A DNA stretch of 25,662 bases from Deinococcales bacterium (GTDB taxonomy: Bacteria > Deinococcota > Deinococci > Deinococcales > JAAFIG01), in NCBI GenBank assembly GCA_043778225.1, contig JAYWGM010000043.1:1-25662 (forward strand). Reading direction: 5' to 3'. Below are positions 1 to 25,662 of the stretch, one piece after another; positions within the stretch are counted from its first letter, which is position 1, and every line of letters starts with the position of its first letter. A program made the position numbers and the translations under genes. Under the pieces are notes generated by a model. It had not been told where the DNA came from, did no database searches, and worked only from the letters and a program-made list of their open reading frames with translations.

Positions 1-894
1 ATGCCAGTGGCTTGCGTCAAACTGCATAGTATCCCAGCCTTGTGGCTCGAGCCTTGCATCAAAAGTTTCGCCCATTAAAAAATCGGAAGCCCGAATCGCG
101 CCTGTGCTGACTTTCCATTTGTCCCATTCGCCACTCGAGGTGATGATTTGCTTTGAGCCGTCGGTCAGTTCAAGCTCGAGTTGCGCCAATAATTGCGGCA
201 GTGCGCCGTAATGCCGACGTTGGTGTTTGTAGCCGATAAACCCCGCAAACCAACCCTCGCCAAGAATTGCACCCAGAACATTCTGACCAACTTGAATATG
301 TTTGGTTACATCAAGCGTTTGGTATTCGATACGCTTGGCATAATCCGTCCAACCGGGCGCAAGGGCTGCGTCTCCAATCCGCCTCCCGTTCAGACTGGCG
401 ATATACAAACCTCGGGCAGTGATGTACAAACGTGCGCGTGTTACCGCATGACCGACCTGAAAAGTAGACCTTAAATACGAGGCTGGTGATGGCTGGTCAG
501 CACTGACAGCATTTGTCGAGTCAAAACCAACCCATTGGGCTTGCCAATCGCTAGAATCCAGCAAACCCATTTCCCAGTGTGCCGATTCACTCCAATCAGA
601 GGGCTGACCAGCTTCGTCCCAAACGCGAACGCACCAATGACAAATCTGCCTCGAAACGAGCGGCACACCCGCATAGGCAATGTGTGCCATTGCGCTCAAA
701 GCAACCCGTCCGCTGTCCCATAAATCGCCCTGACCATTGACTTGGCTCGAGACAAAAACTTGGTAGGCGCTTTGGCGAACATTGCGGCGTTGCGACTCAA
801 TCACCCACGATAAGCGCGGTTCGTGTTCATCAATGCCAAGCGGATTCTCGAGGTACTCGCAACGTAAACCAGTGGGCTGTAGCAAATCAATCAT
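1..894 (-). CDS. Alpha-L-rhamnosidase (GH78 family), N-terminal part; runs off the left edge of the window
   Basis: Not in the ORF track because it has no stop in the window. Translated by hand from ATG 894 (GGAG RBS): MIDLLQPTGLRCEYLENPLGIDEHEPRLSW...QSAYQV...LWDSGRV...APGWTDY..RIEYQTLDVT...FDARLEPQGW. These are typical GH78 N-terminal motifs. Confidence 0.9.
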   Translation of the reverse strand, partial: MIDLLQPTGLRCEYLENPLGIDEHEPRLSWVIESQRRNVRQSAYQVFVSSQVNGQGDLWDSGRVALSAMAHIAYAGVPLVSRQICHWCVRVWDEAGQPSDWSESAHWEMGLLDSSDWQAQWVGFDSTNAVSADQPSPASYLRSTFQVGHAVTRARLYITARGLYIASLNGRRIGDAALAPGWTDYAKRIEYQTLDVTKHIQVGQNVLGAILGEGWFAGFIGYKHQRRHYGALPQLLAQLELELTDGSKQIITSSGEWDKWKVSTGAIRASDFLMGETFDARLEPQGWDTMQFDASHWH

Positions 895-972
895 TGAAAC
901 TCCATCAATTTTGCAAGAAGGGTGTGTCCGCAAGGCACAAAAGAACCACCTGTCCGCAATCCAAAAAAACGC

Positions 973-1788
973 TTAAATTATTGTGTAAACCCGTTGAACG
1001 GTATGCCCAAAAATAAATTTCGCACTGTCAGCCTCACAGTGTTGCTCGAGCATCCGAACCGTGTCGGCGTACTGCCCGCCAAGCCTACAGACGGGATGGT
1101 CGCTGCCAAACATCAGGCGGTTTGCACCGAACAACTTTACGGCGGTTTGAAAGAAGCGCTTAAAAACGTCTGGCTCGAGCGGTTTGGATTTCGCAGCCGT
1201 CAGAAATCCAGAGATTTTTAGGTTGACATGACTCAAATCTGCAAAGCCTGCAAGAGAAGTTGCCCATGACCCATGATTCTCGAGTGCAAGCTCGATTCCA
1301 GCAAAGTGGTCGAGAATAAATTCGACCCGAGGGTGAGCGCTGACGAGTTTGTGTAAACGCGGCGATAAATGGTCTTGAATCAGCAGGTCACAGGTGAGGT
1401 GGTGTTGCTCGAGGATGCTCAGTCCATTGTGCAGTGCCTCCCAGTCGCTATTTGGGGCTTCGGCGCTTGGAATTCTTGGACGTACCCCCTTAAATTTCTG
1501 GTGAGCCATCAATGATTCAAGCTCTTGCTCGAGGGTCGGTGAGGTCAAGTCACACCAGCCAACTACCCCCAGTATTTCTGGATGTGCATTGGCAACCTCG
1601 AGCAACCACCGATTTTCCCCGAGCGAACTGTCTGCCTCCACCAGCACGGCATTCTGAAGGTTGTTGGTGTGCAGTAACTCAAGAGCTTGTTGAATCGTGT
1701 GGTCTCGGTGCAGCACTCCTAACTCCGAGGTGATCCACGAATACTTGAAGCGCTCGAGTTCCCAGATGTGCAGGTGCGAATCGGTCAT
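973..1788 (-). CDS. Amidohydrolase_2 family protein, probable sugar lactonase (L-fucono/L-rhamnono-lactonase-like)
   Basis: DSHLHIW N-terminal metal motif, ILDH, KISG and RLMFGSDHPV. Start overlaps the stop of the upstream RraA-like gene (ATGA). Confidence 0.85.
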   Translation of the reverse strand: MTDSHLHIWELERFKYSWITSELGVLHRDHTIQQALELLHTNNLQNAVLVEADSSLGENRWLLEVANAHPEILGVVGWCDLTSPTLEQELESLMAHQKFKGVRPRIPSAEAPNSDWEALHNGLSILEQHHLTCDLLIQDHLSPRLHKLVSAHPRVEFILDHFAGIELALENHGSWATSLAGFADLSHVNLKISGFLTAAKSKPLEPDVFKRFFQTAVKLFGANRLMFGSDHPVCRLGGQYADTVRMLEQHCEADSAKFIFGHTVQRVYTII

Positions 1789-2567
1789 TTGAGGCTCGAG
1801 GCTTTGAAGGTTTCGTACTCGAGTCTGCCTTCGTCAGAAAGCGGATAATACTTCCAAATCGAACCGCCTTCAGCCAGTTTTTGGCGGCTAAACGATTCCC
1901 AGTCTTCATGCTCTAAGGTTAGCTCGAGCAGTTTTGGCACGAGCTTAATCGGTATCAGCACCACGCCGTCATCGTCGGCAATGATGATGTCTCCGGGCAG
2001 CACCAGTACATTGGCGCAGTCCACAGGGACATTGTGCGCCCACGGAAACAAACCCGCTTGCGAGGCGTAATTCGGGGTCAGTCCACGCACCCACAATGGC
2101 AGACCGATGGGTTGAACGTGCGTCCAATCCCGAATTCGTCCGTCCACGACTGCGCCAATGCCTCCCCGTCCTTTGAGGTAGGTGATTAGCATTTCGCCAA
2201 GACAGCCCGAATGGGTATCGCCTTTGGCGGCAATCACCAGCACATCGCCGTTTTGAATGGTGTCCAGCACGTGCCATAAGGCGCTGCGTTTCTCAATTTC
2301 TTCTTGTGCCACGCCCGAGGCGATGTCCTCGCGTTGCGGCATGAATTGCAGGGTCACGGCGGGTCCGACAATTTTTGTTCCGAGTATGGTCGGGCGTGGA
2401 CCTTCGATGTACGTTTGGCGAATCCCGAGTTTGTGCAGGTAGGCGCTGGCGGTTGCGCTGCTGACCTTATAAAGTTGTTGAATCATGCTTGGGTCTGGGC
2501 GCGTCCAAGCCGCCCCAGCGATGGGCAATTCGATGCCCGGATTGGGCAGTTCAAAGGTTTCATTCAT
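1785..2567 (-). CDS. RraA-like / HMG-CHA aldolase family protein
   Basis: GPAVTLQFMPQRED, GCLGEML, GAVVDGRIRD and VLPGDIIIADDDGVVLIP. ATG 2567, overlapping the end of the upstream gene, is preferred over TTG 2585. Confidence 0.85.
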   Translation of the reverse strand: MNETFELPNPGIELPIAGAAWTRPDPSMIQQLYKVSSATASAYLHKLGIRQTYIEGPRPTILGTKIVGPAVTLQFMPQREDIASGVAQEEIEKRSALWHVLDTIQNGDVLVIAAKGDTHSGCLGEMLITYLKGRGGIGAVVDGRIRDWTHVQPIGLPLWVRGLTPNYASQAGLFPWAHNVPVDCANVLVLPGDIIIADDDGVVLIPIKLVPKLLELTLEHEDWESFSRQKLAEGGSIWKYYPLSDEGRLEYETFKASSLK

Positions 2568-4857
2568 GGTGGTTTCCCGAGTCAATCGCCGTTAGCTCGA
2601 GCCGCCATTGACCAGCCCTGAGGTTCGTTCCTAAAAAAGTGTTGCGACGTGCGGTTTGCGGTTCGGTGTCTCGAGTCATGGGCAGCAGTTCAACAATTTT
2701 TTGGTTGACTCGAGCGGTGGGGAATTCTGCGGCAATCTCGAGTGGCACGCCGATTCTGGCGGTTGTGCCTGTTGGAACGTTGATTTGAATAGAAAAACCT
2801 GTTTTGGAACGGTTGACCTCGAGATTTATCAGTCCGTGCGGTGTAGGTGTGGCAAGTTCTAAGCGTTCGAGCGAACCCAAGTCTGGACAGCAGTCAAAGG
2901 TTTCCCATGCCAAATTGGTGGGGTACAGTCCTGCCACGTATTGGGAAATCAGTGTCAGTGGTCCACCAGACCAGCCGTGGTTGTACGTGCCTCCGCCGTA
3001 GGTGTGCGAACCGATTTCCCATCCCTCCCATAAGGTACTGAGTGGACTTTCGACCATGTTGGTGTAGCGCCGCCTCATGCGGGTCAGAGCAATGTCGGTG
3101 TCACCCATGAACAACAGCGCTTCGAGAACATACTTTTCCATGTACGGACCGGCGTGTTCGGTGGTCTCGAGCAGCGCCCGAATTGCGGGGTACTGCTCGG
3201 GCGTTACAAAGCCAGTCAGTACCGCCAGTCCGTTGGCGCGGTCATCGTAGCTGGTTTCCGAGCCAGCGTAGGCTACCGAACGAAACCCCGTACCTGTCCA
3301 GAATTCTTTGGCAAAAACCTGTTGGACTCGAGCAATTTCTGTGGCGTACCCAAGCGCATCCCCGCTCAGACCCAACTGGGTTGCACTGCGCCGCGCCCCC
3401 TCGAGTGCCAGCGCGTACCAAGCGTGTTCAAGGACTGGAACATCGCAGTGGCTGCCCCAATCGTACCAATCCCAGTCTCCTGCCCGATGCTCGAGTAAAC
3501 CGTCCTGTCCCCAGCGCCACAACCTCAGGTAATCGCGCACTGCTGGGTAGGTGTGGCGCAGCGTCTCGAGGTCGCCGGTGTACCACGTGTACGTCCAGAA
3601 TCCGTAGACTCCAATGGCAGAGAGCATCTGCGCGGGCAGTTCATTGACCCAGTTTCCCGGCACGGGCGAGAACAGCACGCCATCGTCGCGCCGCCAGTCC
3701 ACAAGGTTGCGAATGGCTTTGCGGATGGACCCGTGGGCGTTTTGGTCGCAACTGTAAAGCATCATGCCGAGCAGAATTACCGCGTCACCCCACCACTGGG
3801 CGCGTTCGCGGTCTGGGTCTTGAATGCCGTCGCGCAAATTGACCAGCATGGTGTTGACGCATTTTTGCCAAAGTTGCTCGAGGAACGGATCGTTGCAGCT
3901 TAAACGCCCAAGCACTTCGGTCGGAAAGCGGCTTTCGCGGTAGCCGAGCGCATGAACCGTCACACCGGCAGGAATGGTGTACTGCACCTCATGACCGTTC
4001 AGGTAGCCGATGTACTCGAACGATTGCCGCCCCGATTTGGTGATGTACTGACCGCGTAAATTCGGTTCAGAGCCGCCTCGGTAGTTGTCGGTTTGAAGGT
4101 AAATTGTTTGCCCTTTGATCGCCTCAATCTCAAAGTACGGACTGATGGTTAAATTGCCCGGTAGCTGTCCGCGCAGGGTTTCGCCAGAACTGAGCCACGG
4201 CAAGGGCGGAGCGCTCGAGTAGGGCAAAATAGCGCTTGTGTGCCACTGTGGAAACGGGCGCGGCTCGAGGACACCCCACGGCGCACAGGGCGGCACGCCA
4301 AAGGTGCTACAGGTTTGCCAATCACGATCATCAAAGCCAGACTGCTGCCACTCTGGACTATCGGCTCGAGCATCGAAATGCAAATTGAATTCGGGCAGGC
4401 GGTAATTCGGATGTGGTTCGCCCGTGACCCCAAAAGCGGGATGAACCCGACAGCGCCAAGTTTCGTCGCTGTGCAACGCCAAGCCGTCCGCCTCGAGTTC
4501 AAATACCAGTCCCGCCAGTCCACTCGATTTGTGCGAGAAGCCATCGCGTCCAAAGTACCAAACCAGCACCGCCAAAGTGTTCTCGCCCTCAAGCAGATGT
4601 TGGCTCAACTCGAGCGGGTCGAAATACGAACCGGTCGGGGTTGGACCGCGTTTGAGTTGCCCTTCGATGACCACGGGTTTTCCGTTCAGCCAGAGCCAGT
4701 ATTTGGAATCCACTGCAATTCGAGCCAATGCCGTGGCTGGGAGTTGCTCGAGCCTAAACGACTTGCGGTAACACAACCACAGGTTTGAACTCGGGAAAGA
4801 AGAAGCTACGGGCGCAGGTGCAATCCATTGCGCTTGCCAAGGTTGCTCGAGTGTCAT
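2560..4857 (-). CDS. Alpha-L-rhamnosidase-related glycoside hydrolase (GH78-like)
   Basis: 765 aa. IAVDSKYWLWLNG, DPDRERAQWWGD catalytic-region motif, STLWEGW and TYNHGWSGGP. Confidence 0.85.
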   Translation of the reverse strand: MTLEQPWQAQWIAPAPVASSFPSSNLWLCYRKSFRLEQLPATALARIAVDSKYWLWLNGKPVVIEGQLKRGPTPTGSYFDPLELSQHLLEGENTLAVLVWYFGRDGFSHKSSGLAGLVFELEADGLALHSDETWRCRVHPAFGVTGEPHPNYRLPEFNLHFDARADSPEWQQSGFDDRDWQTCSTFGVPPCAPWGVLEPRPFPQWHTSAILPYSSAPPLPWLSSGETLRGQLPGNLTISPYFEIEAIKGQTIYLQTDNYRGGSEPNLRGQYITKSGRQSFEYIGYLNGHEVQYTIPAGVTVHALGYRESRFPTEVLGRLSCNDPFLEQLWQKCVNTMLVNLRDGIQDPDRERAQWWGDAVILLGMMLYSCDQNAHGSIRKAIRNLVDWRRDDGVLFSPVPGNWVNELPAQMLSAIGVYGFWTYTWYTGDLETLRHTYPAVRDYLRLWRWGQDGLLEHRAGDWDWYDWGSHCDVPVLEHAWYALALEGARRSATQLGLSGDALGYATEIARVQQVFAKEFWTGTGFRSVAYAGSETSYDDRANGLAVLTGFVTPEQYPAIRALLETTEHAGPYMEKYVLEALLFMGDTDIALTRMRRRYTNMVESPLSTLWEGWEIGSHTYGGGTYNHGWSGGPLTLISQYVAGLYPTNLAWETFDCCPDLGSLERLELATPTPHGLINLEVNRSKTGFSIQINVPTGTTARIGVPLEIAAEFPTARVNQKIVELLPMTRDTEPQTARRNTFLGTNLRAGQWRLELTAIDSGNHHE

Positions 4858-5007
4858 GGTGCAACCTTGGTGTGAAAACGAATTTCAGAATAGATTATCA
4901 AAGTTTTCATATAAATTGCCTCTCGAGGATGTAAGGAATTGAACAAAACTATCATGCAGCAACAGTTTAGGTCTTAAAATTTCTAAGTCTGATAAAAAGA
5001 TTCTATG

Positions 5008-5037
5008 GTGCGCCTCGAGACAAAACTCGAGGCGCAC
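5008..5037. terminator. Perfect 12-bp stem-loop downstream of the beta-helix gene (terminator or mRNA stabiliser)
   Basis: GTGCGCCTCGAG-ACAAAA-CTCGAGGCGCAC, 11 nt past the stop at 5049. The U-tract on the minus strand is weak. Confidence 0.6.
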
Positions 5038-5048
5038 GTTTTATTGGT

Positions 5049-7796
5049 TTAGTTCTGAGTCAAAGTGAAATCATCGCAAAACGAATTACCTGCTCCAGCC
5101 GCCTTATAACAATAAATCTTGGCACTGGTACTCGAGCCTCCCGTGGTAAAATTGATTGAGATTTGCGTGTACGTGGTGCTGGTTGAGGCTTGATTAACTT
5201 CTGAACCACCGTAGTCTTTCACGCCGATATAAGTTTGGTCACTCGAGGAGCCTGTTTTGACCCATCCGCGCAGGGTGTAACTTTTATTGGCGATTAAGCC
5301 AGAAATGACTTGTTCCGTGCCACTGCCCGAACCGCTCAAACGCATCGAATTTGTACCGGCACGGGCATCGGAAGCCACCACCAAAGTTGTTCCAAAGTTT
5401 GTCCAAGAGGTGCTGCCGCTCTCAAAGCTCTGGTTGCCAAAAGCCACATTACTAGAAGCATCGGCTGGTACGACTTCAAAGTCGTCGCAAAAAGAATTGC
5501 CTGTTCCCGCCGCTTTGTAACAAAAAATCTTGGCGCTGTTACTCGAGCTTCCAGTTGTAAAATTCATCGAGAGTTGGGTGTATGCAGTGCTGGTCGTTGA
5601 TTGATTGATTTCGGCACTCCCAAATTCTTTCACGCCAATATAGGTTTGGTCACTCGAGGAGCTTGTTTTGACCCAACCGCGCAAGGTGTAAGTGGTGCTG
5701 GCGGTCAAGCCAGAAATCACTTGTTCGCTGCCACTTCCCGAGCCGCTCAAGCGCATAGAATTGCTACCACTGCGAGCGTCGGAAGCCACCACAGAAGTTG
5801 TGCCAAAACTTGTCCAAGAACTTGCACCACTCTCGAAACCGGGGTTGCTAACAGTTCCACTCGAGGGTGGGGTGCTATCCGAAGGGTCACTCGGGGCGCT
5901 GACGGCGGGTCGGCAGCCAGTCAACGAACAGCCCGGAATCCAGTCTGTTCCACCATTTTCGTATGCTCCCGAGTCGGGCGCACTGCCAGCGAATCCATCG
6001 GTGAAGCCACTGAAAACAGCCCCAGCATTGATGGCGGGCGAATTGTTGTTGAGTCGAAAATTGGCAGTTGCCGCATCCATAAATTGTGGATTAACCGAAG
6101 ACCCAATATTGTTTCCTGCCGTAAAATTCGTACCACCAAAAGAGATGTTGCCTCGAGCGATGTTGTTAAAAATGGCTGTTCCACTGGCACTACCGATGTT
6201 ACCCATGTTGATGCTATTTTTAGAGATACCTTTGCCTACGGTGTTGTTGTACACCTTATTGCCGGTACTCGAGCCACCGTTGCCGTGCAGGTAAATACCA
6301 TGTCCTTGAATGTTCCAGACAACATTGTGGTCTATTGTGAAATTGAAGTTCCCATTGTCTATGTAAACCCCTGCGTGCGAAAAACCACCGTTGTTGTACA
6401 AACTATCGTAAATCCAATTGTGATTAATACGAACACCTGCACCATTTGCAGTGCAGCAAGTGTAAATACCACCGAGGTCAGAATTGAGAACCCCAAAGTT
6501 GGCAATGCGGTTGTAACTAACATTATTGCTCGAGTTTGGAGTGATTTGAATGCCATCACGTCCAGTCTTATAAATGCTGTTGTTAGTGATCGTCAAGTTG
6601 CTTCCATCCATAGAAATTCCAGTGGTGTAGCCCGCCGTGTAATTGGTGTTCTCGATCAGGTTATTGGTCACAGTGATGTTTGTTCCCTTGGCTCGAATAC
6701 CGTGACCAGCGCTGTTGCGAACAGTGCTATTTTTGAAGGTGTGACCTGTTCCGTTGAGGATAATTCCAGTATCCTCCTGATGAGAACAGTAAATACTACA
6801 AGTCACCGTTTCGGGCATGGTGATAAAGTGCGTAATATAATTGGCATTGATACCATCTATCGTTGCCGAACTGCTGCTGCTGTTGGTGTTGATGGTTGCT
6901 GCAAACAAGGATAAACCTTTGACCACCACACCACTTTTACCCGCCAAATCAAAGGCATTGGTGCGTTTTTTAGCCTCGACCGTCAAGCTGCTTGGATTGG
7001 CATTGTTGGCAGCCCAAAGGTAAATTTTATTTTGTGCGCCGTCGTAAAACCATTCACCTGCCGAGTCCAAAGCAGCAAGTTTACCGACCAAATAGAACTG
7101 GCTGTTCTGATTGGCACAAAGATTGTTGCAATCAGGTCCCGCCGAGGCAAGGGTCACACTGCCGCTCGAGGAACTAGAAATGGTGCGGGTATGAGCCGTC
7201 CATTTTTGCCCACCGCGAATGTGCGCCGTTGCTCCTGTCCAGTTGATGTTCTGGATGCTCGAGTTGACCAGCGTGGTGCTGTTTGTACCACTGGCGGCGG
7301 TCGCATCGGTACGAAAGAGCGGGTCGCTGCCCGTGTTGGGCCAACGCGCCTCGTTTTGCATCACGCCACCGACAAAAAGCTGATTAGCAAAAAAGCCTGT
7401 ATTGGCAAAACCATTGACTGGCAAGGTGACGGTGGCTTGATAAATACTGCCACTGTAAACGCTCCAACCACTGACCAAATCTGCGCCACTGACGGTCACG
7501 GACGCAGTGCCGTTGGGTTGGAAAATCACCCCTGAGTTTGGTGTGACAGTTTCACGGTACGTGCCAGCCCCGATATTGCAAATGTCACCTGAACCCGAGA
7601 CTGTACCGCATTTTTGAATTGTGCGGTAAGGACTTGCCGATGTGCCAGCATTGGTGTCTGCGCCGTTGGTTGCGACATAACGATTGACTCCTGCTTGAAG
7701 TTGCAATGGTGCGTTTGGAGCTTGATTACATGATGTTACCAAGATGGCGATCAACGAAATGCAGACGGACAACTTTGTGATTGGAGATGATTTCAT
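5049..7796 (-). CDS. Secreted lipoprotein: right-handed parallel beta-helix (GH141-like or pectate-lyase-like fold) with two C-terminal carbohydrate-binding modules
   Basis: ATG 7796 with AAGGA RBS. Lipobox-like LVTSC, YVATNGADTNAGTSASPYRTIQ, QLFV...EARWPN, LDSAGEWFYD, Asn-rich beta-helix repeats (DLGGIY, GVYIDNG), Pro/Ser linker and two NxxFES...DDF modules. Confidence 0.8.
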   Translation of the reverse strand: MKSSPITKLSVCISLIAILVTSCNQAPNAPLQLQAGVNRYVATNGADTNAGTSASPYRTIQKCGTVSGSGDICNIGAGTYRETVTPNSGVIFQPNGTASVTVSGADLVSGWSVYSGSIYQATVTLPVNGFANTGFFANQLFVGGVMQNEARWPNTGSDPLFRTDATAASGTNSTTLVNSSIQNINWTGATAHIRGGQKWTAHTRTISSSSSGSVTLASAGPDCNNLCANQNSQFYLVGKLAALDSAGEWFYDGAQNKIYLWAANNANPSSLTVEAKKRTNAFDLAGKSGVVVKGLSLFAATINTNSSSSSATIDGINANYITHFITMPETVTCSIYCSHQEDTGIILNGTGHTFKNSTVRNSAGHGIRAKGTNITVTNNLIENTNYTAGYTTGISMDGSNLTITNNSIYKTGRDGIQITPNSSNNVSYNRIANFGVLNSDLGGIYTCCTANGAGVRINHNWIYDSLYNNGGFSHAGVYIDNGNFNFTIDHNVVWNIQGHGIYLHGNGGSSTGNKVYNNTVGKGISKNSINMGNIGSASGTAIFNNIARGNISFGGTNFTAGNNIGSSVNPQFMDAATANFRLNNNSPAINAGAVFSGFTDGFAGSAPDSGAYENGGTDWIPGCSLTGCRPAVSAPSDPSDSTPPSSGTVSNPGFESGASSWTSFGTTSVVASDARSGSNSMRLSGSGSGSEQVISGLTASTTYTLRGWVKTSSSSDQTYIGVKEFGSAEINQSTTSTAYTQLSMNFTTGSSSNSAKIFCYKAAGTGNSFCDDFEVVPADASSNVAFGNQSFESGSTSWTNFGTTLVVASDARAGTNSMRLSGSGSGTEQVISGLIANKSYTLRGWVKTGSSSDQTYIGVKDYGGSEVNQASTSTTYTQISINFTTGGSSTSAKIYCYKAAGAGNSFCDDFTLTQN
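5067..5846 (-). repeat. Internal tandem duplication of a CBM-like domain (period 411 nt, 137 aa)
   Basis: Copies at about 5478-5846 and 5067-5435: NPGFESG..VVASDARSGSNSMRLSGSGSG..YTLRGWVKT..DQTYIGVK..CYKAAG.GNSFCDDF. Confidence 0.9.
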
Positions 7797-7860
7797 GAAC
7801 ACATCCTTCAAAGTGGTGCGAGAATTTTGTCTCCCGAACAGAATTTATTTTTAGCAATGT

Positions 7861-8835
7861 TCACCGAGCAGATACTGCCTTTGCAGTCTGCAAGAATTGC
7901 TTGCCACCTCCTACCAATTGCTCTATCGGTATTGGAGCGTTTGGCTCGAGCCAAGCTGTATTTCGTAAGGCTTGCCAGTACGCCTTTGGGATGTTGACCG
8001 CCAGTGCAGCCAGACTGGACTCGAGTTCAACCACCGATGATGCTCCGAGCATTAAGACACTTGCGGCAGGGTGAGCTAAACAAAACTGTAAAGCGGCGGC
8101 TTTGAGCGGTACATTAAATTGCGTGCCAATGTCCTCGAGTTGACGCACACGCTCAAGAATATGATTTGAAGCGTTTTGATAATTAAATTTGGCTGCGTTT
8201 TGTGAGCCTGTTGCTAAAACACCACTGTTGAACACCCCTCCCAGAAAAACCTTGGTGTGTTTGGCATGGCATTGGTCTAAAAAATAGAGTCCAGATTGGT
8301 CGAGCAGGGTATAACGACCTGCCAATAAAAAACATTCAAATTTGTTGTTTTGGGCAAAGCGATTAAGCATTTGCCATTGGTTCATGCCAACCCCAATTTG
8401 TTTGACCATGCCTGCTGCCTGTAACTCGAGTAGTGCTGGAAGTGCCTCGTTCAAGGCTTGCTCGAAATGCTCGTCAGGGTCGTGCAAATAGACAGTATCT
8501 AAGTAATCAACGCCAAGTCGCTCAAAACTCTGGCTGATACCGTGCAAAATTGCTTGGCGGCTAAAGTCGTGCTTGGTTATGGTTGCCGTTCCAGCCCAAC
8601 CAACTTTGCTCGAGAGCCAGTAATCGCTGCGTGGCACGCCCTTGAGTGCCAAACCAAGGCGCTGTTCGCTTTGCCCTTGTCCATAGCGCGGAGCAGTATC
8701 AAAATAGCGAATGCCGTACTCGAGCGCTTTGTCTATGGTTTGGAGCGCCTGAGTCTCGCTGACCGAATGATACAAATGACTGAGTGAAGCTGTGCCGAGT
8801 CCAAGACGTTGCCGTGTCTGTAACGGAAGTTTCAT
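7861..8835 (-). CDS. Aldo/keto reductase, D-threo-aldose/L-fucose 1-dehydrogenase-like
   Basis: GIRYFDTAPRYGQGQSEQRLG, SSKVG, YLHDPD, IGVGMN and LLAGRYTLLDQ. Confidence 0.85.
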   Translation of the reverse strand: MKLPLQTRQRLGLGTASLSHLYHSVSETQALQTIDKALEYGIRYFDTAPRYGQGQSEQRLGLALKGVPRSDYWLSSKVGWAGTATITKHDFSRQAILHGISQSFERLGVDYLDTVYLHDPDEHFEQALNEALPALLELQAAGMVKQIGVGMNQWQMLNRFAQNNKFECFLLAGRYTLLDQSGLYFLDQCHAKHTKVFLGGVFNSGVLATGSQNAAKFNYQNASNHILERVRQLEDIGTQFNVPLKAAALQFCLAHPAASVLMLGASSVVELESSLAALAVNIPKAYWQALRNTAWLEPNAPIPIEQLVGGGKQFLQTAKAVSAR

Positions 8836-9137
8836 GGGGCTAAAGCCGAGAATCGATAAATTTCATTGGCATCTTGCCAAGGTGTAGCAAAACACGGTTC
8901 GGTTTGTTTGCGCCACGCTTCGGCGGCTTCGGTAAATTCTGTTAAGGATTTGATGTCTTTGCTGTCATCAGACTCGAGCAACATAATTAAAGTGTTTCCT
9001 GCACGCAGAATTTCCATGCGCTGATAACCACCTTCGGTCATGTGACGTTCATTGATTTTAGGAATTTCGCGGTGTAAACGCTCGTACTCGAGTAAATGCT
9101 CTGGGTGGAGTGTGGCAATCTTGACTTTTACTTTCAT
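8832..9137 (-). CDS. L-rhamnose mutarotase family protein
   Basis: 101 aa with EYERLHREIP motif, W..QTEPCF and EIYRF end. Overlaps the AKR start; GAGG RBS. Confidence 0.7.
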   Translation of the reverse strand: MKVKVKIATLHPEHLLEYERLHREIPKINERHMTEGGYQRMEILRAGNTLIMLLESDDSKDIKSLTEFTEAAEAWRKQTEPCFATPWQDANEIYRFSALAP

Positions 9138-9155
9138 TGCAACCTCAAACTTAAA

Positions 9156-9188: not shown

Positions 9189-9194
9189 AGCGTT

Positions 9195-10673: not shown

Positions 10674-10715
10674 AATAATGCCTCCTGAAACTATAAAACT
10701 ATTTTGTTGAGTAAG

Positions 10716-12645: not shown

Positions 12646-12722
12646 GATTGTCCTCCCAGCCAGACAGCCATAGAGCTTGCCTTGGGTGGTATCTCGAGTA
12701 ACTTGGTTTGCTCTAAATTCAT
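12642..12722 (-). CDS. Putative 26-aa leader/small peptide MNLEQTKLLEIPPKASSMAVWLGGQS
   Basis: AAGGA 5 nt before ATG 12722; its TGA overlaps the permease ATG (ATGA). Confidence 0.35.
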   Translation of the reverse strand: MNLEQTKLLEIPPKASSMAVWLGGQS

Positions 12723-12810
12723 GCTGTCCTTTGATAACTTAATCCGCACAAGGTTATTCCCAGAATTTGCCGCCATAAAATGGACGATGCAAATCTTGTT
12801 TGGCTAGAAG

Positions 12811-12833
12811 AATCGGTTTACTAAATCGGTTTT
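12811..12833. promoter_or_regulatory. Tandem putative LacI operators
   Basis: AATCGGTTTA followed by CTAAATCGGTTTT: AAAnCGnTTT pseudo-palindrome with central CG, directly downstream of the leftward -10 box. Confidence 0.7.
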
Positions 12834-12836
12834 GTA

Positions 12837-12866
12837 ATCTTAATCCTAGGCTTTTGCAATTGTCAA
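12837..12866 (-). promoter_or_regulatory. Sigma70-type promoter of the sugar operon
   Basis: TTGACA (12866-12861)-N18-TAAGAT (12842-12837). Confidence 0.6.
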
Positions 12867-12897
12867 GCCTTCCTCGAGAAATCCTAAATCGCCCAAG

Positions 12898-12954
12898 TTG
12901 ACACCACCAAAGCGCTTAACGTATCCTCGAGCAATCTGATACTAAATCGGTTTA
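12898..12954 (+). promoter_or_regulatory. Promoter and autoregulatory operator of the LacI gene
   Basis: TTGACA (12898)-N18-TATCCT (12922), then TACTAAATCGGTTTA at 12940-12954. Confidence 0.65.
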
Positions 12955-12986: not shown

Positions 12987-14012
12987 ATGTTGGTCACAAC
13001 CATGATGCACGTTGCACAAAAAGCTGGGGTCAGTAAATCCACTGTTTCACAAGTGCTTAATGGACGTGCCAAAGATTTCAACATCAGCAACGCAACCATT
13101 GAACGAGTCAACCAAGCCGCCCTTGACTTAGGCTATGTTCCCAACACCGTGGCACGCAACCTACGCGCTCAGCGCACTGGACAAATTGGTGTGGTGGTGG
13201 CTGCCCTGACCGACATGGAACAATCCTTACAACTGACCTTTGATGGCGCATGGTTACTCGGTATGAGTACCGCCGCTCGGCAACATGGGTTTACATCGGC
13301 GCTGCTGCTCGAGCAACCCGAGAGCGAACCGAATCTTAATTTATATTACGATGGACGCATCGAAGGCTTGTTGTTACGCTGTGACCCGCGCCATCCACAT
13401 CCGCTTCTGGCTAACCTAACCCCAGCCCGTATTCCTATGGTTGCCGTTTGGACCCAAGAAGCCCCAATTGGCATTGGTTATGCCGACGTGGACCACTTTG
13501 GTGGTGCAGAAATTGCCATTCATCATTTACTCGAGTTAGGGCATCAAAAAATTGCATTTTTAGATTCAGACTCGGACGAAAATAACAATCATTTTCGTTT
13601 GCGCTACAATGGCTACAAAGAAGCCCTTGAGGAAGCAGGAATCCGTGTTAAAACCAATTGGCATCAACGCAGTGTCAGCGCTATTCTCGAGTTAATTCGT
13701 GGTAAAACCCCAGTCACTGCCGTATTCGCCGCCAACGATGTGCGCGGCGTAGAACTGGTACGGGAATTAACTCGAGTTGGAATTCGTGTTCCTGAAGATA
13801 TTTCGGTGATTGGTTTTGACAACATCATTGGAGCAGCTTTCCTCGATGTCGAACTGACAACCATACATCATCCGATACGAGAAATGGCACTCGAGGCAGT
13901 CAAGAATCTGGCTGATTTAATCCAAGGTAAACCCTATCAGGACTGCCGTTCAATCGTACCGACCTACTTGGTTAAGCGCAAAACCTGTGCGCCTGTCAAG
14001 AAACTAAAATGA
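12987..14012 (+). CDS. LacI-family transcriptional regulator
   Basis: HTH TMMHVAQKAGVSKSTVSQVLN, hinge LGYVPNTVARNL, LGHQKIAF, VPEDISVIGFDN and LTTIHHP. Confidence 0.95.
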   Translation: MLVTTMMHVAQKAGVSKSTVSQVLNGRAKDFNISNATIERVNQAALDLGYVPNTVARNLRAQRTGQIGVVVAALTDMEQSLQLTFDGAWLLGMSTAARQHGFTSALLLEQPESEPNLNLYYDGRIEGLLLRCDPRHPHPLLANLTPARIPMVAVWTQEAPIGIGYADVDHFGGAEIAIHHLLELGHQKIAFLDSDSDENNNHFRLRYNGYKEALEEAGIRVKTNWHQRSVSAILELIRGKTPVTAVFAANDVRGVELVRELTRVGIRVPEDISVIGFDNIIGAAFLDVELTTIHHPIREMALEAVKNLADLIQGKPYQDCRSIVPTYLVKRKTCAPVKKLK

Positions 14013-16876: not shown

Positions 16877-16953
16877 TGGTGGGTCCACGGGGACTTGAAC
16901 CCCGAACCTAAGGTTTATGAGACCTCCGCTCTAACCGATTGAGCTATAGACCC
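16877..16953 (-). tRNA. tRNA with CAT anticodon, probably tRNA-Ile2 (lysidine-modified) rather than Met
   Basis: GGGTCTA/TGGACCC acceptor stem, TAGCTCAATCGGTTAGAGC D-arm, loop CTCATAA, GGTTCAAGTCC T-arm and encoded CCA. The G1-C72 pair excludes initiator tRNA; G3-C70 favours Ile2 (inference). Confidence 0.93.
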
Positions 16954-17997: not shown

Positions 17998-19782
17998 ATG
18001 AGCCAAATTCAATTGCCGCAGTGGAACACCAGCGCTTTTTACCCCAGTCTCGAGTCAGCCGAATTCATCGCCGATTTTCAAGGGCTGTTTGTCGATTTAA
18101 GCAGCCTCGAGACACTTTTTGAGCAGCACCAAATTGCACGGCTCGAGTCTGCACCAGACCCAAGCAACAGCGCCCAAGCGCTTGAGGCAATTTTAAGCAG
18201 CATGAATGCACTTATCAACCAAGTTCGTTTGGTGCAGGGGTTTATCAGTTGTTTTACCAGTACCGATTCACGCAACGACCAAGCCCAAGCCAAAGCCTCG
18301 GAGTTACAACTTTTTTATGTGCGGCAATCTAAACTTGGTACACGCTTAGCCAGTTGGGTCGGGAGCATTGATTTGGCTGGCACATTGCAATACTCAAGCA
18401 TGGCTCGAGATTACCAATTTACTTTAGAAAAAATGCAGTTTGCCGCCAGCCACCAAATGAGTCCTCTCGAGGAAGACCTGAAAAGCAGCCTTGCGCCCAG
18501 TGCTTCAAGTGCTTGGGCAAGACTACACGGCAATATCGTCAGTCGGCTCGAGGTGGTGGTGCAGGGTGAGCAAATCCCGATGAGCGCCACCCGAGCCGCC
18601 GCTCGAAGCCCCGACGCAGCTAAGCGCCAAGCGGCTTACTTGGCAGAACTCGAGGCTTGGCAAACCGTTGAAGTGCCTTTGGCGGCTGCCCTGAACAGCA
18701 TTAAAGGCGAAGTTGGTTTGGTCAATGCGCGGCGCGGCTACAGCGACTTTCTCGAGCCAAGTTTACAGGGTGCGAATATCGACCGAGCCACCTTAAACGC
18801 CATGCACCAAGCCTGCACCGAATCGTTTCCAGATTTTCGGCGTTACTTAAAAGCCAAAGCCAAGTTCTTAGGTTCGAGTGCCTTAACTTGGTGGGATATG
18901 CTCGCGCCGGTTGGCAATCCCGGGCGGTCATGGGAATGGGCAGAAGGCACAGAATTTATTGCCCAGCAATTTGGCACATACAGCCCAAAACTCGAGGCGT
19001 TTGCACGGCGCAGTTTATCCCAAGGCTGGATAGATGCTGCCCCACGCCCCGGTAAGCGCGATGGGGCGTTCTGCATGGGTGTTCGCGGCGATGAAAGCCG
19101 TATTTTAATGAACTTTGAACCGAGTTTGGATAGTTTATCCACTTTGGCACACGAACTTGGGCATGGGTATCACAACCTCTGCCTCAAAGACCGAGCCGCA
19201 CTGCAACGCCAAACCCCGATGACCCTTGCCGAAACCGCCAGTATTTTTTGCGAAACGATCGTTTCAAATGCTGCTCTAAAAACCGCTTCTGGACTCGAGA
19301 AACTCTATATCCTAGACACCGAACTGCAAGGGCAAGCCCAAGTCGTGATGGATATTCACAGCCGCTTTTTGTTTGAATCCGAAGTTTTTAAGCGCCGCCA
19401 AGCCCGTGAGTTATCGGTCGCTGAATTCAAAAATCTGATGCTCGAGGCACAAGCCCAGACCTACGGTGACGGTTTAGACCCCAGCACCTATCACCCCTAT
19501 ATGTGGGCGGTCAAAGGGCATTATTACAGTGCTGGTCTAAGTTTTTACAACTATCCCTACACCTTTGGCTTGTTGTTTGGTTTAGGGTTATATGCCCAGT
19601 ATGAGCAAACCCCAGATGATTTCAAAACCAAATATGACACCTTGCTCTCGAGTACCGGACTTGCCGATGCCGCGACGCTTGCCAGTGGCTTTGGGATAAA
19701 CATTCGCACCCCAGATTTTTGGCGTGCCAGTCTTGGACAAATTCGCAATCGGATAGACGAATTCTGCGCTTTGGTTGGCTAG
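17998..19782 (+). CDS. pepF: Oligoendopeptidase F (peptidase M3B)
   Basis: WIDAAPRPGKRDGAFC, zinc motif TLAHELGHGYH, LAETASIFCE and FYNYPYTFG. Confidence 0.93.
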   Translation: MSQIQLPQWNTSAFYPSLESAEFIADFQGLFVDLSSLETLFEQHQIARLESAPDPSNSAQALEAILSSMNALINQVRLVQGFISCFTSTDSRNDQAQAKASELQLFYVRQSKLGTRLASWVGSIDLAGTLQYSSMARDYQFTLEKMQFAASHQMSPLEEDLKSSLAPSASSAWARLHGNIVSRLEVVVQGEQIPMSATRAAARSPDAAKRQAAYLAELEAWQTVEVPLAAALNSIKGEVGLVNARRGYSDFLEPSLQGANIDRATLNAMHQACTESFPDFRRYLKAKAKFLGSSALTWWDMLAPVGNPGRSWEWAEGTEFIAQQFGTYSPKLEAFARRSLSQGWIDAAPRPGKRDGAFCMGVRGDESRILMNFEPSLDSLSTLAHELGHGYHNLCLKDRAALQRQTPMTLAETASIFCETIVSNAALKTASGLEKLYILDTELQGQAQVVMDIHSRFLFESEVFKRRQARELSVAEFKNLMLEAQAQTYGDGLDPSTYHPYMWAVKGHYYSAGLSFYNYPYTFGLLFGLGLYAQYEQTPDDFKTKYDTLLSSTGLADAATLASGFGINIRTPDFWRASLGQIRNRIDEFCALVG

Positions 19783-21171: not shown

Positions 21172-21180
21172 ACAAAATTT

Positions 21181-21315
21181 AAGTATCTCCCGTCTACATT
21201 TTAGAATTTTCAAGAATCGGCAATTCTGTCATTACGACGGCAGATACGTCGTCCCCACTCCTTCTAGTCGCAAAATATTTTAGCAAAAAGCGCTAAAATA
21301 TTTCGGGATGTACTT
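21181..21315 (-). repeat. Second multi-hairpin element, with imperfect terminal inverted repeats
   Basis: Ends AAGTATCTCCCG (21181) and CGGGATGTACTT (21304-21315) match 10/12. Perfect hairpin AAATATTTTAGC-N7-GCTAAAATATTT (21273-21303). CGAC-N5-GGAGTGG on the minus strand. Confidence 0.6.
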
Positions 21316-22267
21316 AGAATTGAAAAGCGGCTGGAATAAATTCGTAGCCACCAAAATTGCGGCGGCGGATGTAGCCAACTCCCGGGAATGGAAAATGGTA
21401 GCCCGTGACCAGCATTTTTTCGGCTGCCACCCGACGGAAAATCTCGGCTCGAGTTTTGACCGCTTGTGGTTTATCGCTGTCAAAGCCAAGGTAAGCACTT
21501 GGATAATTGAGGCTTAACAAAAAGTGTCCGGCGGCATCGCCCATCAGCATCATCTGGCTTGTGCCACTCGAGACCAATACACTTTGATGCCCAAGGGTGT
21601 GACCGGGTGTGCCAACGGTGGTCAGTCCGGGTACGATTTCTGCGCCATTGCCAATCAGTTTAAGTTTAGCGCTCTGTGAAACAATGTTTTTGACGATTCC
21701 AGCCCCAACCGCGCCAGTGGCTGGTTTGGTCCAGAAGGTGTGTTCGGTTTCGCCAGCGATTAACTGGGCTTTTGGAAAAACAGCTTGGGTTTGGGCATTG
21801 GTCAGACCATTGATGTGGTCGCCGTGAAAATGGGTCAGGTAAACGGTATCAATATCTTCTGGTTTATAACCCGCCAGAGCCAAGTGGTTCAGTAAGCGCC
21901 CAGTTGGTGCATTGGCATTGACTCCGTTGCCTGAATCTATCAAGACTTTATTTTTTCCAGTGTCCACCAAAACCGGATGAAAATTGTTGCGAACGGCTGC
22001 CACATCAATATAATTGGCTTTGAGCGTGGCTTTGAATTCGTCTTGGAGTTCTGGATTTGCGCCCCAGTTTGGCAACAGCGCCGCAGGGTTGCCTTGACCA
22101 TCGGACAGCACCACAACTGTAAACTCGCCAACCTTGATGCGGTTAAAACCAGCCCCGTTAGGAATAACCAAGTTACTTTGTGCGTTGCTCACACTGATTC
22201 CACCGATGCTGGCGGCTGCACCAGCCAAGCCAAAAGTCTTTAATGCCTCGCGTCTCGAGATACCCAT
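21314..22267 (-). CDS. Tat-exported MBL-fold metallo-hydrolase
   Basis: SRREALK Tat motif, THFHGDHING, TPGHTLGH, GDA and YHFPFPG. AAGGAG RBS. Confidence 0.92.
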   Translation of the reverse strand: MGISRREALKTFGLAGAAASIGGISVSNAQSNLVIPNGAGFNRIKVGEFTVVVLSDGQGNPAALLPNWGANPELQDEFKATLKANYIDVAAVRNNFHPVLVDTGKNKVLIDSGNGVNANAPTGRLLNHLALAGYKPEDIDTVYLTHFHGDHINGLTNAQTQAVFPKAQLIAGETEHTFWTKPATGAVGAGIVKNIVSQSAKLKLIGNGAEIVPGLTTVGTPGHTLGHQSVLVSSGTSQMMLMGDAAGHFLLSLNYPSAYLGFDSDKPQAVKTRAEIFRRVAAEKMLVTGYHFPFPGVGYIRRRNFGGYEFIPAAFQF

Positions 22268-24189: not shown

Positions 24190-25370
24190 TCTTTTTTCTC
24201 GAGCGCATCAAATAATTTATCCAAATCGGTTTTGGTGCTGTAATGCCCAATGCTGGCACGAATTGCCCCAGTTGGATATAAGCCCAGTGCGCTCATCGGC
24301 AGCATTGCGTAATAATGCCCACCCGCCACGCCAACGCCTTGCTGTCCAAGGTATTTAACCACCTCGAGCGGGTCTGCGCCAATGTTAAAGCAGAACGTGC
24401 CAACGCGGTTTTGGCTGCTTGGTTCGCCGTAGAGCGTAGCATTTGGTAAGGCTTTTAAGCGCTCCAAAGCATACTCGAGCAAGGGTTTTTCGATGGCTTC
24501 GATGCGCTCGTAAGCTCGAGCCAAGCCGCTTCGAGCCGTTAGACCATCGCCCAGTTCTTGGCGCAAATACGACAGCGTGCCAAGCCAGCCAGCCATGCCT
24601 TCATAATTGTTTGTGCCGGGTTCAAATTTTAAGAGGCTGTCGTCGGGGATAAAGTGCAGTTTTTGGGCTGGCAGTTGCTCGAGTAAGTTCTGGCGGATGT
24701 ACATAAACCCAAGGTGTGTGCCAAAAACCTTGTATGCCGAAAAAAACGCAAAATCCACATCGCTGGCTTTAACATCGGGCAGATGATGCGGACTGTCATG
24801 CACTAGGTCGTTGACCACCCAAGCCCCAACACTGTGCGCCAGTGCGGTTGCGCCAGCCACATCTGGGCGGTTGCCAAGGCTGTTGGCTGCGCCCGTGATG
24901 GCGAGTAATCGAGTGCGCTTGGTTAGTAATTTCTCGAGTTGGCTCAGTTCAAGCCGCCCCTCAGACCACGTAGCCCGCCAGATTTTGACCACACAGCCAA
25001 TTTGCTCGAGTTCGCGCCACGGACTGGCATTACACTCATGCTCAAGTTCAGAAATAATAATTTCGTCACCAGCCTTAAAAAGCCTCGAAAAGGCGCTCGA
25101 GAGCCGAAAAGTCAGGGCGGTGGCACTCGGACCAAGCACCACTTCGCTGGGGCTGCAACCAAAAAATTCGGCAGTCTCGACTCTGGTTTGGTCGCGGACG
25201 GCAGTCGAAAGCTCTGAACCCGCATAAGGCATTCCGATGTTGCAACTGGCGGACTCGAGAAAAGCCGTAATACCGGCAATACAAGCCCGTGGCACTTGTG
25301 CGCCAGCCGCGTTATCCAAAAAAGAAAACCCAGAAGCCAAAGCTGGAAAATGCTGCTTAAAATTGTCCAT
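24186..25370 (-). CDS. Class V aminotransferase / cysteine-desulfurase-like protein
   Basis: FLDNAAGAQVP, EHECNASPW, DLVH, PLP lysine FSAYKVFG, FEPGT and IRASIGHY. Confidence 0.88.
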   Translation of the reverse strand: MDNFKQHFPALASGFSFLDNAAGAQVPRACIAGITAFLESASCNIGMPYAGSELSTAVRDQTRVETAEFFGCSPSEVVLGPSATALTFRLSSAFSRLFKAGDEIIISELEHECNASPWRELEQIGCVVKIWRATWSEGRLELSQLEKLLTKRTRLLAITGAANSLGNRPDVAGATALAHSVGAWVVNDLVHDSPHHLPDVKASDVDFAFFSAYKVFGTHLGFMYIRQNLLEQLPAQKLHFIPDDSLLKFEPGTNNYEGMAGWLGTLSYLRQELGDGLTARSGLARAYERIEAIEKPLLEYALERLKALPNATLYGEPSSQNRVGTFCFNIGADPLEVVKYLGQQGVGVAGGHYYAMLPMSALGLYPTGAIRASIGHYSTKTDLDKLFDALEKKD

Positions 25371-25385
25371 GGGCAAGTTTAGCGC

Positions 25386-25433
25386 TTATTGATTGCCAAT
25401 GCCAAAAAATTTATTGAGTGCCAATGCCAAAAA
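25386..25433. repeat. 25-bp-period tandem duplication of a gene end
   Basis: TTATTGATTGCCAATGCCAAAAA (25386) versus TTATTGAGTGCCAATGCCAAAAA (25411), 22/23 identical. Confidence 0.85.
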
Positions 25434-25662
25434 TATTTTCTGGGTCAAGCTGCTGCTTTGCGCCTTTAATCCACTCGAGTCCAGCGCTGCTTTTGACATC
25501 CTTGACAAAGCTGGCTCTGAGTTTACCAATGCCATGATGATGCGAAATCGAGCCACCATGCTCGAGAATTGTTTCGCGGGCCGAATGCTCGAGAACCGCA
25601 AATTGCTCGGCTGGGTTTTTAACGCCAGTCGCTAGGGTCGCCAAGTAAAAATAAACGGCTGC
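25411..25662 (-). CDS. C-terminus of an FAD-linked oxidase (alkyl-DHAP synthase/GlcD-like); starts beyond the window
   Basis: VYFY, GGSISHHHGIGKLR and KQQLDPENIF. Confidence 0.85.
   Translation of the reverse strand, partial: AAVYFYLATLATGVKNPAEQFAVLEHSARETILEHGGSISHHHGIGKLRASFVKDVKSSAGLEWIKGAKQQLDPENIFGIGTQ

Follow-up and report, generated by a model that had tools for sequence, protein, structure and literature searches.

CTCGAG as a probable highly iterated palindrome in an uncultured family of Deinococcales

Results and Discussion

A single hexamer fills the window and its source genome

The DNA analyzed here (the window) is the whole of contig C43 (JAYWGM010000043.1), 25,662 bases from an uncultured Deinococcales bacterium, and the feature that pervades it is the palindromic hexamer CTCGAG. 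The original prediction had counted about 145 copies, in every codon phase and in non-coding DNA, and likened the word to HIP1, the highly iterated palindrome of cyanobacteria. An exact search returned 146 copies, the first at 46 and the last at 25588, and the individual copies lie where they had been placed. Dinucleotide-preserving shuffles of the window (n = 100) contained 3.24 copies on average (standard deviation 2.08, maximum 12), and none of the 100 reached 146. By frame arithmetic, 81 sites in open reading frames read CTC-GAG (Leu-Glu, such as 18106), 18 read xCT-CGA-Gxx (CGA at 13771 and 15753), and 34 read xxC-TCG-AGx (TCG-AGx at 5242 and 5653). The 13 sites outside open frames, among them 4922, 5014, 5026, 12873, 12926, 16829, and 17947, fall in about 2.1 kb, or one per 161 bp. 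No common flanking sequence surrounds the copies in the window. Taking all the evidence together, we consider it probable that CTCGAG is a HIP-type word under a directional force exerted by a protein that reads it.

The same density holds throughout the source genome (G000; 4,029,277 bp in 107 contigs, with a guanine-plus-cytosine [GC] content of 48.7%). CTCGAG is its top-ranked hexamer, with 24,877 copies, or one per 162 bp; the next six commonest hexamers are overlapping shifts of the same word, and the commonest unrelated hexamer has 5,347 copies. Every one of the 27 contigs longer than 60 kb carries one copy per 150–198 bp. The observed/expected ratio (O/E) is 26.7, 47.5, 15.1, 3.6, and 1.16 under Markov models of orders 0–4, the low values at high orders arising because 68% of all TCGA tetramers sit inside CTCGAG. 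Genome-wide, the flanks from −10 to +10 are near background composition. With 243 copies, the octamer CCTCGAGG falls about six-fold short of the other 15 NCTCGAGN octamers (1,117–2,203 copies each); one-sided C or G flanks are not depleted, and CCTCGAGG may be a separate avoided 8-bp site.

We called genes from open reading frames with a codon-score filter, which gave 3,540 genes covering 88.7% of the source genome. On average, CTCGAG recurs every 161.7 bp in coding DNA and every 162.2 bp in non-coding DNA. The 22,045 coding sites comprise 13,140 CTC-GAG and 4,415 and 4,490 in the other two phases, against about 1,640, 380, and 304 expected from a synonymous-codon shuffle within genes and about 650, 225, and 172 from a codon-order shuffle. 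A dicodon-Markov model predicts 2,676 and 2,168 sites in the two phases that span three codons, and is informative only for these, because phase 0 is preserved by construction. Spacers of 20–300 bp hold 1,203 copies, compared with 44 expected from base composition. With an excess in spacers, counts above the shuffle and dicodon expectations, and the same density on all large contigs, the pattern cannot be put down to codon or dicodon usage, nor is it confined to one contig. The original prediction had allowed that the enrichment might disappear under a dicodon-preserving shuffle or be confined to this contig; instead, both testable phases stay above the dicodon-Markov expectation, and the density recurs on all 27 large contigs and in all 18 other genomes of the family.

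Only the complete site is favored, and it reshapes proteins

All 18 one-letter variants of CTCGAG are outnumbered by it, 18- to 188-fold overall and 18- to 32-fold for the ten commonest. The variants number 132–1,387 copies each, at or below the base-composition expectation of about 880–1,040, and the larger ratios belong to variants that contain other avoided words. An excess of the full hexamer with no raised neighbors points to an all-or-none advantage, as for recognition by a site-specific protein, and the favoring of the complete hexamer is not bound to one type of mismatch.

CTCGAG overrides codon choice and has put extra Leu-Glu pairs into proteins. Away from adjacent pairs, CTC accounts for 9% of Leu codons and GAG for 22% of Glu codons, which predicts that 2.1% of Leu-Glu pairs would be encoded as CTC-GAG; the observed share is 69% (13,140 of 19,027). 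Compatible peptides are occupied by the site at 69% for Leu-Glu, 56% for [SPTA]-Arg-[VADEG], and 42% for x-Ser-[Ser/Arg]. Leu-Glu is also the most over-represented dipeptide, with an O/E of 2.30, compared with 0.96 for Glu-Leu, 0.71 for Val-Glu, and 0.52 for Met-Glu. For comparisons of protein effects, other genomes were sampled at 94–400 kb each. Aligned orthologous columns contain 694 Leu-Glu pairs in the source genome vs 420 in G019, and 715 vs 477 in G021; in the same columns Glu is rarer in the source genome and Leu equally common. Across family members of 45%, 49%, and 59% GC, the Leu-Glu O/E is 2.21, 2.30, and 2.15, and in three other families it is 1.04–1.24. This surplus in orthologous columns, together with the family-wide O/E, indicates that the word has altered proteins, and about one-third of the family's Leu-Glu pairs appear to be extra. 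Transfer RNA (tRNA) genes are less affected: the 68 in the source genome (5,286 bp) contain 6 sites vs 32.6 at genome density, which is five-fold lower and still above the base-composition expectation.

Density is kept while positions turn over

Reciprocal best hits with the source genome gave 140 protein pairs in G006 (same genus, median 78% identity) and 187 in G013 (another genus, 65%). Four-fold degenerate positions outside CTCGAG differ at 59% (G006) and 65% (G013), near saturation. At conserved Leu-Glu pairs, the probability of a site in G006 is 0.735 if the source genome has CTCGAG there and 0.426 if it does not; for G013 the two values are 0.442 and 0.417, so that between genera the presence of the word at such a pair hardly depends on the partner genome. 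Where Leu-Glu is encoded otherwise, the six letters agree in only 28 of 162 cases in G006 (17%) and 5 of 156 in G013. Density is thus kept and positions are not, and most of the apparent conservation is re-creation at compatible places. As a consequence, a conservation test of the kind applied by Xu et al. cannot separate site selection from replenishment here. The original prediction had posited a genome-wide process that creates or preserves the motif, and turnover between genomes at unchanged density agrees with it. Genomes of the same genus share 66–86% DNA identity over matched gene stretches (99% over tRNA) with broken synteny, and a metagenome scan yielded only relatives of 45–54% identity plus short fragments.

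Gaps between sites in the source genome have a coefficient of variation of 1.00. The hazard of meeting the next site is 0.0022 per bp at 6–15 bp and reaches a plateau of about 0.0075 at 90–250 bp, followed by a declining tail. When sites were permuted over compatible positions with the protein sequence fixed, 775 gaps of 7–15 bp and 1,683 of 15–30 bp were predicted, and 373 and 1,379 were observed. The occupancy of Leu-Glu pairs rises with the distance to the nearest site, from 37% (7–15 bp) and 59% (15–30 bp) through 68%, 71%, and 75% to 78–79% (90–300 bp). In spacers, depletion is confined to the 7–15 bp bin (ratio 0.64). Gaps longer than 180 bp are as frequent as under the permutation null (ratio 1.02), and the evenness of spacing therefore arises only from the avoidance of close pairs. 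A gap of exactly 6, which would generate GAGCTC (24 copies in the whole genome), is never seen. The spacing in the source genome showed no helical periodicity. Pairs of sites separated by one base (CTCGAGNCTCGAG) number 123, compared with 30–53 for gaps of 8–11, with the four middle bases equally used.

Only 19 gaps longer than 1.5 kb occur in the 4 Mb of the source genome (Table 1), and 12 of them have a GC content of 31–39%, against 48.7% for the genome. These stretches are probably imported islands. The island on C40 carries a methyltransferase gene, L004, without any CTCGAG.

The trait is graded across the order

We refer to the family of the source genome, which is uncultured and represented by 19 genomes in five genera including the source genome, as f1. 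Each of the other 18 contains 12,028–35,442 copies of CTCGAG, and 12 genomes from four other families of the same order contain 128–7,001 each. Within f1, density is one per 177, 162, and 213 bp at 45%, 49%, and 59% GC. As a proxy for a survey of 201 genomes across the phylum, we counted pairs of sites exactly 40 bases apart: three f1 genomes scored 90–116 and families f2, f4, and f5 scored 0–35, and in f3 only 2 of 92 genomes were nonzero. In sequence samples, the spacer O/E is 27–33 in the source genome, G006, and G013, and 2.2–5.9 in G019, G021, G025, and G030, and all three codon phases are filled only in f1. Coding sites in the high-GC genomes G021 and G025 are nearly all CTC-GAG, both codons being preferred there. 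The trait thus varies by degrees across the order, with f1 at the extreme and f3 lacking or reversing it. A lineage-wide pattern had been anticipated, and it extends to all 18 other f1 genomes with a graded excess in sister families. The accompanying remark that Meiothermus DNA is also rich in the hexamer would fit the two- to six-fold spacer excess seen in families of the same order.

CTCGAG alone escapes a general avoidance of palindromes

The abundance of CTCGAG stands out against a genome depleted in palindromes. In the source genome, 51 of the 64 palindromic hexamers reach less than 0.3 of their expected number, and 31 occur no more than 52 times. GGCC is present 131 times in the 4 Mb, GATC is at 0.13 of expectation, and the degenerate families GGNNCC, GRCGYC, RCATGY, RGATCY, and GWGCWC are near-absent; the window itself contains 0 copies of GAGCTC, 2 of GGCC, and 15 of GATC. 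CTCGAG is the sole strongly enriched palindrome. That restriction sites are normally avoided and CTCGAG is nevertheless enriched had been remarked in the original prediction, and these counts bear it out, with the word about 27-fold over expectation. The depletion of so many palindromes suggests long exposure to many restriction systems and marks a genome unusually shaped by restriction, from which CTCGAG alone escapes. Its escape fits constant protection by methylation, although protection explains neutrality and not a 27-fold excess.

Methyltransferases, repair, and uptake genes

The source genome encodes 17 intact DNA methyltransferase candidates and one more broken by a TGA. Completeness of the f1 genomes is 57–94%, and gene absences reported here mean "not found." A co-distributed orthologous methyltransferase was not found in f1, in a search that left out the Dam family (PF02086). 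Several candidates were tried as a shared enzyme and rejected. For L010, which carries a TaqI_C domain, and for L012 and L002, there is no orthologue in G012, G009, G010, or G015, which represent the other four genera; the same-genus genome G007 has an 85% match for L002 and none for L010 or L012. L001 gave partial matches only (30–53%), the C5 enzymes L015, L016, and L017 are either confined to a single genus or patchy, the type ISP-like L011 and L022 have matches in 8 of 18 genomes, and L007, part of a type I-like operon, is patchy. Matches of the Eco57I family cluster into many small patchy groups, in which L012 pairs with a gene of G006 at 41% identity. PF01555 had no match in the single-contig genome G013, PF00145 none in G010, and PF02384 only weak ones in G006. 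Gamma-class candidates occur in the source genome and in 17 of the 18 other f1 genomes.

Two genes of the source genome, at C99:49951-52971 and C1:34616-37834, encode proteins of 1,006 and 1,072 residues, in which an N6 methyltransferase domain is combined with a type ISP specificity domain. The type ISP coupler is found in the C99 protein only, Pfam detected no nuclease or helicase part in either, and orthologues are patchy, with one at 52% identity in another family.

In family f4, G025 encodes a near full-length, 479-residue homologue of M.TaqI (E 1.7e-126 to PDB 2ibs), with relatives of 51–54% identity in two f5 genomes; M.TaqI homologues in genomes of this order agree with the assignment to Deinococcales. 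The best matches to the G025 enzyme in the source genome are L012, at 23% identity in the catalytic part, and L010, at 21% across 455 residues that take in the specificity domain. Judged from these similarities, L010 and L012 would be our first-choice candidates for a CTCGAG methyltransferase.

Methylation of this word is documented in cultured relatives. From SMRT sequencing, N6-methyladenine (m6A) at CTCGAG has been reported in Marinithermus hydrothermalis (Marky_0034, annotated Eco57I, 94.6% of sites), Meiothermus chliarophilus (MeichDRAFT_0814, annotated as a type I M subunit, 94.1%), and Meiothermus ruber (Mrub_2385, 99.5%) (PMC4752239, Tables S3–S5). The enzymes, M.Mhy14884I, M.Mch9957IV, and M.Mru1279II, are candidate orphans of type II, for which no cognate nuclease is given (Blow et al. 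2016, PMC4752239). The main text of that paper, in the passages covered, mentions CTCGAG only for origin clusters in Nocardia, and no genome-wide excess. With their Eco57I-type and type I M-like annotations, the three enzymes are probably not one orthologous family, and the differing annotations suggest that the same specificity has been supplied from different ancestries. With that, the lack of a shared orthologue counts for less against methylation in f1. The methyltransferase link made in the original prediction thus holds in part: m6A at CTCGAG is known from three cultured Deinococcota (PMC4752239), but no co-distributed orthologue turned up in f1.

Among repair and uptake genes, Vsr (PF03852) was found in 0 of the 19 f1 genomes and MutH (PF02976) in 2 of 19, and ComEC is present in the source genome and in 17 of the 18 others. 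PF04555 (the XhoI nuclease) had no match in the source genome, and a control search with it likewise matched no genome.

Competing explanations for the excess

Our data define a directional force that operates throughout the family, favors the complete site, and is blind to coding. Mutation and constraint balance it, and at short range it interferes with itself. From the analysis as a whole, we regard a link between this force and methylation as evenly poised. The explanation we rank first, and advance tentatively, is a methylation-tagged drive acting through uptake or recombination. Under this proposal, a protein would read all six bases of CTCGAG as one site, and a fixation bias acting across the genome would make and remake it. 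The reader would be a methylation system, like those that place m6A on CTCGAG in the three cultured relatives, and methylated copies would tag the DNA of kin. DNA bearing the word would then be favored in natural transformation or recombination, and a molecular drive would spread it until balanced by mutation and protein constraint, a scheme that has now been put forward for methylated HIP1 in cyanobacteria.

This proposal is ranked first because of new results on HIP1, the competence of the phylum, and the presence of ComEC. Natural competence is known in Deinococcota. Methylated HIP1 boosts transformation in Synechococcus PCC 7002 (bioRxiv 10.1101/2024.09.10.611283), and HIP1 has been put forward as an uptake sequence (PMC13756078). 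The low-GC gaps in the source genome lack CTCGAG, in line with foreign DNA that does not carry the word.

A number of observations weigh against an uptake or recombination drive. Known uptake sequences are 9–12 nt long, non-palindromic, and spaced at about one per kb, and CTCGAG departs from that definition as a 6-bp palindrome with one copy per 162 bp and near-background flanks. A 6-bp word would discriminate only about 25-fold as an uptake signal. Interference between sites extends to about 30 bp or less, a distance that matches a protein footprint or a hairpin and not an uptake fragment. ComEC is non-discriminating, as it is also present in all 12 genomes from other families, including the word-avoiding family. 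Eleven of the 17 intact methyltransferase candidates were compared across f1 and each is patchy, with no family-wide orthologue (L003, L004, L018, L019, and L021 lay outside this comparison, and L008 and L009 entered it only as weak matches of other queries). Each main methyltransferase class in Pfam is missing or weak in at least one genome that is more than 90% complete. Finally, no close homologue of the M.TaqI-like enzyme of G025 was found in the source genome, where the best matches are 21–23% identical.

Ranked second, and on balance unlikely, is selection for density as such. Here CTCGAG would serve as a hemimethylation mark, as GATC does for Dam in E. coli, or as a site that organizes the nucleoid, required about once per 150 bp wherever it may fall. 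The uniform density of the source genome, with its few long gaps, and the similar density of f1 genomes that differ in GC content agree with such a requirement. The interference at footprint scale fits density selection best, through diminishing returns and overlapping footprints, but the avoidance of hairpins between two copies of a palindrome explains it equally well. GATC, at 0.13 of expectation, cannot serve in this role, and a chromosome-structure role has been argued for HIP1 (Xu et al. 2018, PMC5861425). Yet gaps above 180 bp are no rarer than under the permutation null, the spacing lacks helical periodicity, and the reader protein is still only postulated.

A methylation-dependent repair ratchet, proposed for HIP1 by Elhai (2015), ranks third, and we think it less likely again. 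In this model, mismatches are resolved toward the strand that completes a methylated CTCGAG, and no exchange of DNA is needed. It shares with an uptake or recombination drive the turnover of sites, the equal density in genes and spacers, and the absence of the word from low-GC islands. The m6A found at CTCGAG in three cultured relatives (PMC4752239) is equally welcome to it, and Elhai ties each alternate HIP to a methyltransferase of matching specificity (PMC4390886). The repair genes speak against it: Vsr was found in none of the 19 f1 genomes and MutH in only 2, the C5 methyltransferases are not family-wide (with none in G010), and a family-wide methyltransferase was not found. So do the variants of the word. 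All 18 are outnumbered, instead of the one transition class that T:G-specific repair predicts, the transition neighbors are the commonest of them, and the outer positions hold only a slight surplus of one-letter deviants (6,184 vs 3,503 and 4,106).

The remaining two explanations are excluded. A by-product of codon, dicodon, or amino-acid usage is highly improbable: phase 0 is the largest class of coding sites, and in high-GC G021 and G025 nearly all coding sites fall in it with both codons preferred, but in the source genome spacers are as dense as genes, CTC-GAG far exceeds the share predicted from codon use, and the excess fills three phases and persists over the synonymous-shuffle and dicodon-Markov nulls. 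An artefact of assembly, binning, or cloning (CTCGAG being the XhoI site), for which no supporting point was found, is more improbable still, given the equal density on the 27 large contigs, the 18 like genomes that include a single-contig genome of 5.1 Mb, the embedding of sites in reading frames with effects on protein sequence, and two sequencing runs of one study, one of which may be the source sample, that each contain 96% of the words sampled from an 8.7-kb stretch. A phage connection was also considered and rejected: the viral contigs among the matches listed (for three sites within 72 bp) are mostly 53–72% GC, with GAGCTC and GGCC also common, and the f1 signature is missing from them.

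Comparison with known iterated words

The original prediction had described the behavior of CTCGAG as HIP1-like, and the frame-independent, spacer-filling, genome-wide, and lineage-wide pattern supports that description. HIP1 (GCGATCGC) is likewise a short, GC-containing, hyper-abundant palindrome, enriched 15- to 300-fold (Xu et al., PMC5861425), compared with 15- to 47-fold for CTCGAG depending on the null. Like HIP1 and the alternate HIPs, CTCGAG occurs in all frames and in spacers, is lineage-wide, is scarce in imported DNA, and has a function that is unexplained. Methylation of the word is a further likeness, for CTCGAG at least in cultured relatives. The differences are also clear. CTCGAG is a hexamer in another phylum and HIP1 an octamer, and CTCGAG is about six times denser than the approximately one per kb quoted for HIPs by Elhai (PMC4390886). 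CTCGAG adds Leu-Glu pairs to proteins in large numbers, it has no family-spanning methyltransferase orthologue, and the bias of one-letter deviants to outer positions is weak. Its positions change from genus to genus, whereas for HIP1 Xu et al. take conservation as a sign of site selection (PMC5861425). Closer to hand, the CTCGAG m6A methyltransferases of Deinococcota involve the same word in the same phylum with no nuclease listed (PMC4752239), and relatives in the same order show a weaker, codon-independent excess, with a spacer O/E of 2–6.

Other known systems share some of these features. The DNA uptake sequences (DUS) of Neisseria and the uptake signal sequences (USS) of Pasteurellaceae are kept in genome-wide excess by drive, lie inside genes where they affect peptides, are scarce in foreign DNA, and are over-evenly spaced. 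CTCGAG is similarly over-represented, peptide-affecting, scarce in foreign DNA, and over-evenly spaced, but DUS and USS are longer, non-palindromic, far sparser, and independent of methylation, and CTCGAG is a 6-bp palindrome at one per 160 bp. Very short patch (VSP) repair shapes the counts of CCWGG and CTWGG in E. coli through a bias tied to a methylated palindrome, whose count it raises, and needs a C5 methyltransferase and Vsr. Here, by contrast, Vsr is not found, C5 enzymes do not extend through the whole family, and every one-letter variant is disfavored. The GATC sites of Dam in Enterobacteria are methylated palindromes that occur every few hundred bp, a density that a tetramer has by chance. 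CTCGAG reaches a comparable density only through about 27-fold enrichment of a hexamer, in a family where MutH is confined to 2 of 19 genomes. Origin clusters of methylated sites have also been described (PMC4752239).

In the literature covered, which mostly leaves out subscription journals, we found neither an excess of CTCGAG on a genome-wide scale nor any HIP beyond cyanobacteria described. What this analysis adds is the grading of the trait from family to family, the turnover of sites, their all-or-none reading and their interference at short range, the negative outcome of the searches for a shared methyltransferase, Vsr, and MutH, and the connection to published CTCGAG methylation in cultured relatives (PMC4752239). 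It is possible, though doubtful, that f1 represents a second, independent invention of a HIP outside cyanobacteria, with methylated CTCGAG as a genome-wide mark of self or kin for uptake, recombination, or a Dam-like function, and with a weaker form in Meiothermus and Marinithermus. If this is true, a hexamer has been driven to the density of a tetramer and part of the proteome rewritten in one uncultured family, and the HIP problem can be put to the test in another phylum, one that is open to genetics.

For thirty years HIP1 has lacked an explained function, and only now is it being tied to methylation-dependent transformation. A second case, with another word in another phylum and a series running from about 2–6-fold to about 30-fold, would separate general features from cyanobacterial ones; candidates for the general features are complete-site reading, turnover at constant density, scarcity in imported DNA, and methylation without a nuclease. 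CTCGAG further illustrates how strongly a DNA-level word can shift the sequence of proteins. On the practical side, missing CTCGAG flags foreign DNA in f1 genomes, and the word may inflate the number of spurious open frames on the opposite strand.

Features of the window and minor observations

Table 1. Arrangement of CTCGAG in the window, with examples of each codon phase, and site-free stretches elsewhere in the source genome
Feature	Position	Strand	Remarks
Dispersed array, 146 CTCGAG copies	46..25593	.	Mean spacing ~175 bp; longest gap 687 bp, after 7258
Phase-0 example, CTC-GAG = Leu-Glu	18106..18111	+	Within peptidase M3 gene 17998-19782
xCT-CGA-Gxx example (Arg CGA)	13771..13776	+	Within LacI-family gene 12987-14012
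xxC-TCG-AGx example (Ser, then Ser or Arg)	5242..5247	-	Within beta-helix/CBM (carbohydrate-binding module) gene 5049-7811
Three spacer copies (4922, 5014, 5026)	4922..5031	.	Between gene ends 4857 and 5049
Three copies (12693, 12873, 12926)	12693..12931	.	Divergent spacer between ABC (ATP-binding cassette) permease gene and LacI-family gene
Three copies (25474, 25561, 25588)	25474..25593	.	3' of aminotransferase gene, outside the frames used
CTCGAG-free stretches, 1.5-5.6 kb	C44:57430-63067, C41:55253-59553, C40:7694-11074, 16 more		G000

Positions 1-12645 hold an ordinary sugar-utilization cluster with two alpha-L-rhamnosidase genes, an aldo-keto reductase, and an ABC sugar transporter, as well as a beta-helix/CBM protein with a GH141-like insertion; a gene for a LacI-family regulator is transcribed divergently from it. 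Spurious open frames run antisense to genes, for example one of 437 codons at 5601-6914 (+) inside the gene at 5049-7811 (−), and CTCGAG, which is free of stops in all frames, may help keep such frames open.

Two short dispersed repeats were also noted. One, about 138 bp long and without CTCGAG, lies at 21180-21317 between a gene for a CCA-adding enzyme and the next gene; about 25 more copies occur in the source genome at a median identity of 83%, and dozens in each genome of the same genus. The other, at 16555-16695, lies upstream of a tRNA gene at 16880-16953 (minus strand); its 42-bp core is about 90% identical at many places in the same genus, and copies of 96 bp occur in the source genome.

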